Assembly: GCA_037481815.1 (NCBI GenBank) | Contig: JBBFKX010000007.1 | Span: 1 to 751, forward strand | Reading direction: 5' to 3' | DNA: 751 nucleotides | Source: a candidate division WOR-3 bacterium | GTDB lineage: Bacteria; Hydrothermota; 32-111 | Shown here: positions 1 to 751 of the stretch, one piece after another | How the letters are laid out: each line of letters starts with the position of its first letter | Position numbering within the stretch: the stretch's first letter is position 1 | Made by a program: the position numbers

Positions 1-751
1 TTATCTTAAAAAAATTTTCAAAGAACTTTACCTTTTTGACTACAATCTCAAAAAGGAGACAAAACTTTCGATGAATGAAGCGATGGTGTTGTGTACGATC
101 AGTGAGAAAAAAATGGATCTTACACAACTTTCAAAAGAACTTTATGTTTCAAAACCAAGAATGACAAAAATAACTGAAAAACTTATAAAAAAAGGTTTTT
201 TAAAAAAACTGGTTTCAGAAACGGATAGGAGAGAAAAATATCTTGTTCTGACTGAAAAAGGTTATAAAAAAATTCACGAGATCAAAGACAAAAAAATACC
301 CTTTCCCCAGATCCGCCTTATCCGCAAAAAACGAAAAATAGTAAATATCATCGGGGACGGTGCTTGACTTTTTGACATTTTTGTGTAACCTTATAAAATA
401 TGATAATTTAAAAAGGGGAGGAGCAATGAGAAGAGCAAGAGTTAAGTATGAAGGTTCATACCATCATGTTATGAACAGAGGGTTTAAAAATGAAAAAATT
501 TTTCTCAATCCAAAAGCGAAGCAACATTTTCTTGAACTTCTTGAGATTTTATCTAAAAAATATGGTATGGAAATCTATGCATATTGTTTGATGAAAAACC
601 ATTTTCACCTGGTTTTAAAAAATCATAAAAATTTATTATCAGAGTTTATGAAAGAACTGGATGGTTCTTATGGAATCTATTACAGGAAAAATTTTGGAGG
701 TAGAGGATATGTTTTTGCAAGTAGATTTAAGTCAACACTGATACAGGATGA

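Follow-up and report, generated by a model that had tools for sequence, protein, structure and literature searches.

A probable TIRtron with a RAYT-like nuclease gene and dispersed solo ends in a genome of candidate division WOR-3

The window, which is the whole stretch of DNA analysed here (751 nucleotides at the start of contig C7 in genome G000), carried parts of two genes on the forward strand and a repeat at their junction. The 3' part of a gene for a MarR-family regulator was identified in the ORF list at 2..367, open at the contig start (Pfam MarR 40.9 bits, cut-off 24.6). The left terminal inverted repeat (TIR) of the element was located at 351..382 on the same strand, composed of a 30-mer (353-382) and two partly conserved preceding bases. 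A G-rich box (GGGGACGGTGC, 353-363) came first in the TIR, then two tandem TTGAC words at 364-368 and 372-376. The second word supplied the -35 hexamer TTGACA (372-377) of a promoter-like site of the nuclease gene (372..399, forward strand), with a 16-nt spacer and the -10 hexamer TAAAAT (394-399). This site agreed with 11 of 12 consensus positions and was the best of the window in a sigma-70-type consensus scan, being a match to consensus alone. A putative Shine-Dalgarno-like GGGGAGGAG (415..423), read from the sequence, ended 2 nt before the ATG of the second gene, codons 1-108 of which filled 426..749, all on the forward strand, with the ORF continuing past the contig end. The product is a RAYT-like nuclease of the Y1/HUH type for single-stranded DNA, called TIRYT below, and its HUH motif His-Phe-His was found at codons 59-61 (600-608).

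The ends of the element overlapped the neighbouring genes, with a MarR-family gene on the left and a glycosyltransferase gene on the right, and the nuclease gene reads in the same direction as both. The last four codons of the MarR ORF and its TGA stop (365-367) lay inside the left end repeat; the left repeat provides the MarR stop codon. In G002 the MarR gene was complete with 126 aa. In G005, which has no element, it closed with a stop codon of its own, and the next gene began 51 nt further on. The C-terminal part of the nuclease gene was present in bases 1-411 of contig C11, with an inverted repeat copy at 379-408, while about 60 middle codons (109-168) between the C7 and C11 parts were unassembled in G000. 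Roughly 0.2 Mb of G000 is present merely as fragments of 0.5-1 kb. The C11 copy lay wholly within the last 11 nuclease codons and contained the sole in-frame ATG of the next gene. For the glycosyltransferase gene, the start codon and a Shine-Dalgarno sequence come from the right repeat and the nuclease 3' end together. An earlier note on this DNA had stated that no copy of the repeat lies wholly inside an ORF, which the C11 copy contradicts. Its placing of the 30-mer, of the 108 codons on C7 (with a Y1_Tnp match over cut-off) and of the C-terminal part with its inverted repeat on C11 was reproduced, and its caveats that the gene is incomplete and the repeat promoter-like hold as well. Taken together, the window is most probably the left end of a TIRtron, with a 30-32-nt TIR, a candidate promoter, a ribosome-binding site and TIRYT codons 1-108.

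Codons 1-108 scored 46.2 bits against Pfam Y1_Tnp (cut-off 23), and the range was 46.2-46.9 with the G002 protein included. The full-length gene, seen in G002, encoded 305 aa, and codons 1-108 of G000 were 96% identical to this protein. H59, Y111 and Y118 were invariant in 38 of 38 aligned homologues, in line with the HUH and Tyr invariance claimed before, and S138 and S139 were also invariant in the alignment. Both Tyr111 and Tyr118 fall within the unassembled codons 109-168 of G000. Because this catalytic Tyr region is unassembled, nuclease activity may be assumed for G000 by way of the G002 protein, given the 96% identity over codons 1-108.

The AF2 model of the protein (pLDDT 87.6) gave the E. 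coli REP transposase 4er8_A as its best Foldseek match in the PDB (E 3.3e-7, TM 0.70), the same match as in the earlier note. In VIA-align, 4er8_A reached Z 16.9 over 155 residues (155/165 aligned, rmsd 2.5), and IS608 TnpA (2vhg) scored lower at Z 10.1. A profile made from the 38 homologues also had 4er8_A as its best PDB sequence match (E 4.4e-4), with the HUH motif and the Tyr helix aligned. A single-sequence PDB search with the G002 protein gave no match at E up to 1; by sequence, 4er8 was reached with the profile only. The extra C-terminal helical domain mentioned in the earlier note was present. Residues 211-301 matched four DnaA domain IV entries (Z 7.3-7.8, ranks 4-7 in VIA-align), with other helix-turn-helix proteins at Z 5.8 or less, and the tail is predicted to be a DnaA-domain-IV-like helix-turn-helix, from a modelled fold with middling Z scores. 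Pfam Bac_DnaA_C (PF08299) matched one of the 38 homologues (E 2.1e-9), and the G002 protein gave no match to it even at E 10. A six-frame search of G000 with Bac_DnaA_C yielded nothing at E up to 10, and no dnaA gene either, and so offered no comparison within the genome. Database sources labelled relatives as "RayT", the name used by JGI, or as "DnaA domain protein".

The end repeat was counted in G000 at 24 exact copies and at 35 copies with up to 5 mismatches, the same numbers as before. The conservation profile of the 35 copies confirmed a block with sharp edges, though its length was really 32 nt rather than the 30 nt given earlier, and the two bases preceding the 30-mer were T in 27/35 and C in 18/35 copies. 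The G-rich box was the best conserved part. The GGGGACGG end agreed with 7 of the 8 positions of the motif GGGGWSAS, having G in place of A, and among the ends of relatives GGGGTCAG fitted the motif in full, with GGGGTCGG also found. The build of an end could be described as a G-rich box, then two tandem words of about 8 nt. An exact word of at least 5 nt was repeated at a 7-9-nt offset in 25 of 28 homologue arms, against 18.5% of random segments from the same loci. The G-box was constant among proteins 46-54% identical, and the tandem words differed from lineage to lineage. This two-part build suggests which protein domain reads which part. No credible Rfam family was obtained for the window, the G002 locus or three repeat regions of G000; the sole row scored 24 bits against a gathering value of 50.

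Nine copies stood in a row at C3 273464-279129, directly following a CRISPR array, with a Shine-Dalgarno sequence and start codon downstream of several of them. A further copy lay 25 nt after the second CRISPR array, and copies were found near both ends of a defence island with ResIII, DarT, Macro and methylase genes; the row of nine, a copy after each array and the copies on both sides of the island had been reported in the earlier note and were seen again. A gene-less inverted pair of 290 nt was located at C3 177770-178059. The copies in the genome other than the two at the nuclease gene are solo ends of the same TIRtron repeat family.

Such gene-less ends were dispersed over the genome and bordered variable blocks of genes.

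In the genus, the gene and the repeat were both present in G000-G004, and both were absent from G005, as had been noted. Exact inverted pairs of 30-32 nt bracketed the gene in G001 and G002, and both halves were seen in G000 on C7 and C11. The end variant with TTTTT, which flanks the gene of its own genome, was present in 34, 25 and 37 copies in G000, G001 and G002 (the last two counts taken at up to 2 mismatches). The AGTGT variant, again flanking its own gene, had 18 copies in G003 and 19 in G004, and G005 had neither variant. Each genome amplifies that variant which flanks its own gene. There was one gene copy in each of G000, G002, G003 and G004, and G001 had one plus a weak match to a separate RAYT. 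The gene occupied an identical site between the MarR and glycosyltransferase genes in G000-G004, and in G005 these two genes were adjacent, 51 nt apart, which represents the empty site.

For 15 of 36 G002 copies, a single alignment to G000 spanned the repeat and both flanks, therefore these copies are at shared sites. Flanks at shared sites were 79-94% identical between G002 and G000, and the repeat was conserved within 0-1 mismatch. Given that G000-G004 all carry the gene at one site and that numerous solo copies occupy shared positions, recent transposition is not demonstrated, and the TIRtron family may be largely immobile. It had been proposed that gene and repeat move together; of this, the tracking of the gene by the repeat within the genus was confirmed. 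No clean single-repeat insertion with clear borders was found, and at C1:279997 the corresponding intergenic DNA of G003 and G004 was too diverged to place a border; this is in keeping with the earlier warning about fuzzy borders.

Many paralogues were present in other genera of the family; counting fragments, G008 had up to 15 matches and G007 had 11. Among the homologue loci of relatives, 28 of 29 had their own inverted end pair of 22-39 nt, and the 29th had a truncated flank. The left arm ended 9-135 nt before the start codon, and the right arm overlapped the stop codon or lay within 17 nt of it. Homologues at 33-56% identity carried different ends, which had the G-rich box alone or at most a 16-nt core in common. 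This corrects the claim that the same repeat flanks distant homologues.

The exact repeat had also been assigned to at least 83 stretches from at least 10 phyla. In the two collections scanned here, the exact 30-mer was found outside the genome at 3 and 4 loci. All seven had flanks 89-100% identical to G000 or G002, and two were filed in archaeal bins. Judging from these flanks, the loci are DNA of this genus, and cross-phylum conservation of the exact 30-mer is not supported, which agrees with the caveat on mis-binning that accompanied the claim. Of 201 genomes of the phylum, 25 contained the 16-nt core; only the core spreads, not the exact 30-mer. For annotation it should be considered that repeated exact short sequences draw foreign-looking fragments into bins, and that an apparent cross-phylum spread requires a check of the flanking DNA before acceptance.

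The element most probably represents a known class, a TIRYT gene inside a TIRtron, rather than a REP/RAYT system. This class was described by Di Nocera, De Gregorio and Rocco (2013, BMC Genomics 14:522, PMC3733652), so the element of this genus would be a further case of it. According to the parts of that paper which concern the ends, the TIRYT end motif is GGGGWSAS, "some" ends share the motif and some form repeat families. As with the elements described there, a RAYT-like tyrosine nuclease gene with HUH and Tyr (the Tyr region known from homologues, being unassembled in G000) lay between terminal inverted repeats and not REP hairpins. The ends started with a GGGG-type motif and had a short fixed distance to the gene or overlapped it. 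They belonged to a moderately abundant, dispersed family of single, paired and grouped copies, a trait of some TIRtrons only, and the protein was longer than a RAYT. Several differences were seen. The host is an uncultured candidate-division lineage absent from the survey, as far as its portions used here extend, and the end matched GGGGWSAS at 7/8 positions. The same portions of PMC3733652 contain no mention of a G-box with two tandem words of about 8 nt, of a cassette array beside CRISPR, or of ends serving as stop or start codons of neighbours.

TnpA_REP subclass 2.1, from Quentin, Siguier, Chandler and Fichant (2018, BMC Genomics 19:475, PMC6006769), is characterised, in the sections on this subclass, by a tail that resembles Bac_DnaA_C or an HTH and by the absence of REPs close to the gene. 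By shared architecture alone, the element would be assigned to this subclass. Its protein is likewise among the longest Y1 proteins, a Ser motif (S138 and S139) follows the Tyr helix, and the gene has no adjoining REP-like sequences. The C-terminal extension was Bac_DnaA_C-like/HTH by fold, with a sequence match in 1/38 homologues only. The sections of PMC3733652 and PMC6006769 drawn on here do not describe binding, cleavage or movement of any TIRYT.

Two other kinds of element with a Y1/HUH nuclease could be compared with this one. A classical RAYT with a REP family, in which the 30-mer would be a REP mobilised as a folded hairpin, fits the best structure and sequence match to 4er8, the single-copy gene, the short repeats dispersed outside genes and the RayT label given by JGI, and is the type named in the earlier note. 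The repeat, however, is no REP: it formed no hairpin beyond chance (DNA fold z -0.27 and +0.85), compared with -17.4 kcal/mol and z -4.41 for the GTAG units of the genome, and no palindromic GTAG-tagged REPs flanked the gene. The nuclease obtained 59.7 bits with NCBIfam REP_Tyr_transpos (NF047646, cut-off 80), the entire profile being covered. Its identity to the E. coli enzyme was 15-17%, and that enzyme has no C-terminal DNA-binding domain and uses a GTAG-tagged hairpin as substrate, whereas the ends here do not fold. The genus also holds a separate canonical RAYT with GTAG hairpins, a 172-aa G001 protein which passed the RAYT model at 83.1 bits and, like its G019 homologue, lies among such hairpins. 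GTAG hairpins do not track TIRYT, none being found in G003 or G004, both of which have the TIRYT gene, and they were rejected as a TIRYT substrate. The REP/RAYT explanation is considered highly improbable. An autonomous insertion sequence of IS200/IS605 type, moving as a whole and leaving solo ends as debris of past insertions, would account for a gene between inverted ends, the empty site in G005, the many paralogues in other genera and the 290-nt gene-less pair, and the HUH/Y1 core fold is common to the IS608/ISDra2 TnpA. Those elements are multi-copy, lack inverted repeats and carry a different subterminal hairpin at each end, while here one gene copy per genome (G000, G002, G003, G004) stayed at an unchanged site across G000-G004 and no subterminal hairpins were present. 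In addition, the NCBIfam model transpos_IS200 (NF033573) gave 23.2 bits, far below its cut-off of 55, and the solo ends remained exact (24/35 identical) rather than decaying. An origin of this type appears very improbable.

The 30-mer could instead be primarily a host regulatory module, such as a promoter or -35 cassette that can be carried from place to place, or a sequence bound by a host factor, and the nuclease gene would merely carry it at its ends. Two TTGAC(A) words in the repeat, the 11/12 promoter match 27 nt before the start codon, the several C3-array copies preceding a Shine-Dalgarno sequence and start codon, and the copies that keep their place between species while flanks diverge to 79-94% are all consistent with it. 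But with crude ORF calls there was no clear bias in orientation, the T-rich side of 18 copies facing a gene start and that of 12 a gene end, and the element's right end is directed into the nuclease gene at its 3' end. The best-conserved G-rich box has no promoter role, and the words of homologues (TGTAAACT, TTGGATTT, ATGCAAAT and TATACTT) are unlike -35 boxes. The variant also changes alongside the ends of the gene itself, and both are gone in G005. This alternative is therefore regarded as improbable, and the TIRtron assignment is preferred.

For the TIRtron, a possible mode of action can be outlined. A TIRYT dimer would recognise the end by its two tandem words of about 8 nt, probably through the helix-turn-helix domains, and the HUH/Tyr centre would nick one strand at or beside the G-rich box. 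TIRYT may act in trans on every copy, and in this way could spread, maintain or recombine DNA bounded by ends. Binding of TIRYT to its own left end would cover its own promoter and might limit its own expression. DnaA boxes, TTATCC(A/G)C, were also considered and discarded; they occurred outside both element ends, but inside the coding sequence of the neighbour genes, and by eye beside 3-4 of the 35 copies.

A detail added here is that inserted blocks and rearranged cassettes have their breakpoints exactly at the repeats. Two inserted blocks, one of about 5.5 kb and one of about 2.5 kb, were each flanked by a pair of direct copies, with a single copy at the corresponding place of the sister genome, and in a near-identical pair (about 98% in the flanks) the homology stopped at the exact edges of the 30-mer. 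The cassettes of the nine-copy array were reordered in G002, one of them duplicated, and the shared blocks started at repeats. A defence island of 6.7 kb, with end copies close to both of its borders, was missing from G003, G004 and G005, where its flanks were 5-12 nt apart.

Integron cassette arrays use attC sites. The likeness of the present arrays to them is in pattern alone: short gene blocks stand in a row, the same short site preceding every block, and order and content vary between related genomes with differences that break at the sites. Unlike integrons, they have no tyrosine-recombinase integrase and no folded attC, the sites being ends of an HUH-nuclease element. It may be speculated, as a rather unlikely extension, that solo ends are working recombination sites, with TIRYT nicking one copy, rejoining at the following copy of like orientation and so cutting out or inserting an end plus a gene block; the ends in rows by the two CRISPR arrays and around the restriction/DarT island would in that case form a cassette system resembling an integron, with an HUH nuclease in place of a tyrosine recombinase. 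Ordinary homologous recombination between identical 30-mers could also be the source of breakpoints at repeats. The genus offers a compact natural test set, with one copy of the gene per genome, a pair of end variants that change together with it, a species with neither gene nor ends and with an empty site, and block insertions that break exactly at ends.

Half or more of the words sampled from the C3 array were contained in three public runs, all as contigs.

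The window (751 bases) makes up all of contig C7. On its forward strand, positions 2-367 held the 3' portion of a gene for a MarR-family regulator (40.9 bits with Pfam MarR, cut-off 24.6), whose stop codon lay inside the left copy of the 30-nt end repeat, which was located directly in the sequence at 353-382 on the same strand, where the earlier note had placed it. The only long ORF downstream of the repeat in the window was that of the Y1/HUH nuclease, which ran forward from an ATG at 426 to 749 (108 codons, open at the contig end) and reached 46.2 bits with Pfam Y1_Tnp (cut-off 23). 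The best promoter-like site in a consensus scan of the window (11 of 12 positions, forward strand) consisted of TTGACA at 372-377, a 16-nt spacer and TAAAAT at 394-399, its predicted -35 hexamer being the second TTGAC word of the end repeat; a predicted ribosome-binding site, GGGGAGGAG, followed at 415-423 on the same strand.

The 3' part of the nuclease ORF was found on contig C11, where the repeat stood inverted at 379-408. In the congener G002 the gene was whole (305 codons, 96% identical over the part in the window), bracketed by exact inverted copies and with the same neighbours as in the genome under study (G000). Alignment to this gene revealed that codons 109-168 were missing from G000, and both invariant tyrosines fell there. 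The repeat-bearing small contigs of G000 (12 of the 17 small contigs, C4-C20) were 0.5-1-kb pieces with the repeat near the middle, and all 12 mapped to 1.05-1.24 Mb of G002 C1, a region of ~0.2 Mb that was absent from the large contigs of G000. The simplest reading is that the shared repeat drew reads into the bin, which were then assembled locally at bin reassembly, in which case the split of the nuclease gene would be an artefact of assembly and not biology.

The MarR, nuclease and glycosyltransferase genes had one common reading direction. The nuclease ORF continued through the right repeat, which supplied its final eleven codons, and the glycosyltransferase ORF had its only in-frame ATG within the same repeat, five bases 3' of an AAGGAG that was part of the nuclease's last codons. 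The claim that none of the 35 repeat copies was inside an ORF was thus wrong for the two copies of the element, the left one holding the MarR stop. The C-terminal tails QAPSP, KAPSP and VKHRPQ of three database proteins (P0008, P0037 and P0114) corresponded to the three reading frames of the G-box of the repeat, so the ORFs of distant relatives also continue into a right end that has this core.

RAYT-like genes located between terminal inverted repeats, and not between REPs, have been described as TIRtrons, and their proteins as TIRYTs (Di Nocera, PMC3733652). The motif GGGGWSAS is common to many TIRtron ends, and some ends are members of dispersed families whose copies are single, paired or grouped (PMC3733652). 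TIRYTs were equated with TnpA_REP subclass 2.1, whose proteins were described as long, with a tail resembling Bac_DnaA_C or an HTH and without REPs nearby, and the GGGG motif was described as unlike the DnaA box (Quentin, PMC6006769). The sections of the TIRYT literature consulted report no biochemical test of a TIRYT. The element of G000 fits this description, its end agreeing with GGGGWSAS at 7 of 8 positions, and it belongs to the already known class TIRtron/TIRYT. The features to retain are the ends built in two parts, the repeat variant that switches along with the gene, the empty site, and the changes of whole blocks with breaks at the repeats.

The earlier observation was largely right. 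The NCBIfam RAYT model covered its entire profile on the nuclease with 59.7 bits, below the cut-off of 80, and the IS200 model gave 23.2 bits (cut-off 55). The E. coli REP transposase 4er8_A was the best solved relative by profile (E 4.4e-4). An AlphaFold model from an alignment of 38 relatives (mean pLDDT 87.6) also had 4er8_A at the top of the Foldseek ranking (E 3.3e-7, TM 0.70 on target), and VIA-align against 48,161 chains gave Z 16.9 for 4er8_A (155 residues, rmsd 2.5) and 10.1 for IS608 TnpA. H59, G94, F97, R100, Y111, Y118, N122, S138 and S139 were invariant in the 38-relative alignment. A search of 5.8 billion protein sequences returned 174 relatives at E up to 1e-5; among the best 120 of them nearly all were ~300 aa long, the named sources were candidate divisions and an Elusimicrobia MAG, and the names included "REP element-mobilizing transposase RayT", "transposase" and "chromosomal replication initiator DnaA domain protein".

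Residues 211-301 aligned with four DnaA domain IV entries (8btg, 1l8q, 3pvp and 1j1v) at Z 7.3-7.8, ranks 4 to 7, in VIA-align, all above other helix-turn-helix proteins (Z 5.8 or less). The modelled domain may resemble DnaA domain IV; the Z values are middling, yet the four entries are in agreement and span the domain. In a sequence search, only one of the 38 relatives reached Pfam Bac_DnaA_C. A six-frame search of G000 gave no Bac_DnaA_C match, with matches in 12 of 14 control genomes, so the 95%-complete assembly seems to lack the C-terminal part of dnaA. Perfect DnaA-box words adjoined the repeat at C1:281213.

A canonical RAYT system was revealed in the same genus. In G000, 16 units of GTAG plus a hairpin with a 7-bp stem formed five clusters (C1 97111-97407; C3 273512-273564 and 275010-275162; C15 194-260; C18 300), and the units folded strongly (-17.4 kcal/mol, z -4.41). 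Every cluster abutted a 30-mer. A cross-genome search gave such hairpins in G000 (10), the congeners G001 (10) and G002 (7), and genome G019 (19), and none in G003, G004, G005 or 14 other relatives. A 172-aa ORF of G001 located amid these hairpins (locus L086, 995-1510, minus strand) passed the RAYT model with 83.1 bits against 80, and its homologue in G019 (55% identical) was likewise between hairpins; with this RAYT as query, no canonical RAYT gene was found in G000 or G002. Since the canonical RAYT sits among the GTAG hairpins, and none were found in G003 and G004, the hairpins belong to another system. With a score below the RAYT cut-off, ends without a hairpin and a separate canonical RAYT, the TIRYT ought not to be filed as RAYT.

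The repeat occurred in 35 copies at up to 5 mismatches, 24 of them exact, as the earlier note had counted: 8 on C1, 3 on C2, 12 on C3 and one on each of the 12 small contigs. Information content of the aligned copies fell to background straight after position 30, and conservation extended two bases leftward (T in 27 and C in 18 of the 35 copies). The 30-mer was no palindrome, and the folding of either strand as ssDNA was no stronger than that of shuffled sequences (z -0.27 and +0.85). It consisted of a G-rich box, GGGGACGGTGC, then two TTGAC words spaced 8 nt apart. At 29 homologue loci, drawn from 12 relatives with 33-96% identity in the N-terminal part, the upstream flank was compared with the downstream one for the best inverted match; 28 of them gave a pair of 22-39 nt, the 29th locus being cut 56 nt ahead of the gene. 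At the 28 loci the left arm ended 9-135 nt upstream of the start codon, and the right arm lay over the stop or at most 17 nt from it. The pairs varied between paralogues around a common build, a G-rich box (GGGGACGG, GGGACGGAG, GGGGTCGG, GGGGTCAG, AGCGGCGGGG, GGCCGGGCC and others) followed by a short word twice in tandem (TTGACATT, TGTAAACT, TTGGATTT, ATGCAAAT, TATACTT, TTGTAAAT and others). An exact word of at least 5 nt was repeated at 7-9 nt offset in 25 of 28 arms (18.5% of random segments from the same loci), and one of at least 6 nt in 19 of 28 (7.5%), both counts being descriptive since the loci are kin.

The form of the repeat changed with the gene. The form with TTTTT numbered 34, 25, 37, 4, 2 and 0 copies in G000 to G005 at up to 2 mismatches. 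The nucleases of G003 and G004 were ~74% identical and had their own ends with AGTGT replacing TTTTT, a form with 18 copies in G003, 19 in G004, one near-match each in G000 and G002, and none in G001 or G005. At C1:281213, where G000 carried TTTTT, AGTGT was at the aligned position in G004 and ~130 nt away in G003. In G005 (99% complete) the nuclease gene and both repeat forms were not found; its MarR gene had its own stop, and the glycosyltransferase gene began 51 nt further on. This gap is an empty site for the ~1-kb unit; with a flank identity of only ~68%, the insertion borders have an uncertainty of a few bases about the repeat edges.

For 15 of 36 G002 copies a single alignment to G000 covered the repeat and both flanks at 79-94% identity, the repeat itself being within 0-1 mismatch. 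Many copies are thus old and kept, and their preservation argues for selection or homogenisation and against recent hopping. Around the copy matching C1:77828, a 2.4-kb stretch (locus L032, 1300-3700) was 100% identical in G001, G002, G003 and G004 and without match in G005; elsewhere in the compared regions G003 and G004 were only 70-80% identical to G000 and G002. This could be caused by recent transfer between species, or by shared or chimeric contigs among bins.

The exact repeat had been reported across phyla, which did not hold. It was present at three loci in a collection of 185,579 species genomes and four in a metagenome collection, from both of which records of G000 or a very near genome may be left out. 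L031, from a bin titled Woesearchaeota, was 89.5% identical to G000 C1 over 2.8 kb and 92.9% to G002; L033, a 1.6-kb contig from a bin titled Thermoplasmatota, was 99.2% identical to G000 C3 over the matching 650 bases; the other five were 95-100% identical to G000 or G002 over matching parts. By their flanks all seven are DNA of this genus, two of them mis-binned. In a sample of the phylum, it was the 16-nt core, GGGGACGGTGCTTGAC, that spread: it was exact in 25 of 201 genomes (12 of 90 genera), the reversed control giving 0 in every one, and formed families of 10-33 copies in five other genomes. In G132 (locus GC 39.5%) it was on both sides of a homologue 46.5% identical, and in G022 (locus GC 48%) copies of it preceded a homologue with 54% identity in the fetched part; both had a different second word. 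Within the phylum, a strikingly constant half-site thus persists although the proteins have diverged.

At C3 273464-279129 nine equally oriented copies stood in a row, the first ~40 nt past the last repeat of a CRISPR array, and a further copy was 25 nt past the last repeat of a second array (period 66 nt). Blocks common to G000 and G002 in the nine-copy array began at repeats and differed in order, c1 to c9 in G000 and c4, c1, c3, c6, an unmatched block, c3 again and the downstream gene in G002. The cassette ORFs were mostly without Pfam family, with an AAA_14/DUF4143 ATPase in one cassette. The single copy at C2:121391 corresponded to two direct copies ~5.5 kb apart in a metagenome contig ~98% identical to G000, where homology ended at the outer edge of one copy and restarted at the inner edge of the other; the one copy at C1:297029 corresponded to two direct copies 2.5 kb apart in G002. 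A 6.7-kb island between the copies C1:43768 and C1:50250 (L057 1648-7899; C1 43.9-50.2 kb) encoded a type III restriction enzyme (ResIII + RE_endonuc), DarT, a Macro-domain protein and an N6/N4 DNA methylase. G003, G004 and G005 lacked the island, their flanks lying 5-12 nt apart, and G002 had other DNA and a decayed repeat copy at the site. These block changes fit site-directed exchange and, equally well, homologous recombination between identical 30-mers.

A version of the island 73-82% identical was located elsewhere in G001 (C4 140.7-146.2 kb), adjoining another repeat copy. Just past the second CRISPR array, at C3 177770-178059 (L035 471-760), a gene-less inverted pair of ends with outward G-boxes enclosed 230 nt of AT-rich DNA, its second copy decayed at the T-rich end; this pair is a MITE-like miniature of the element.
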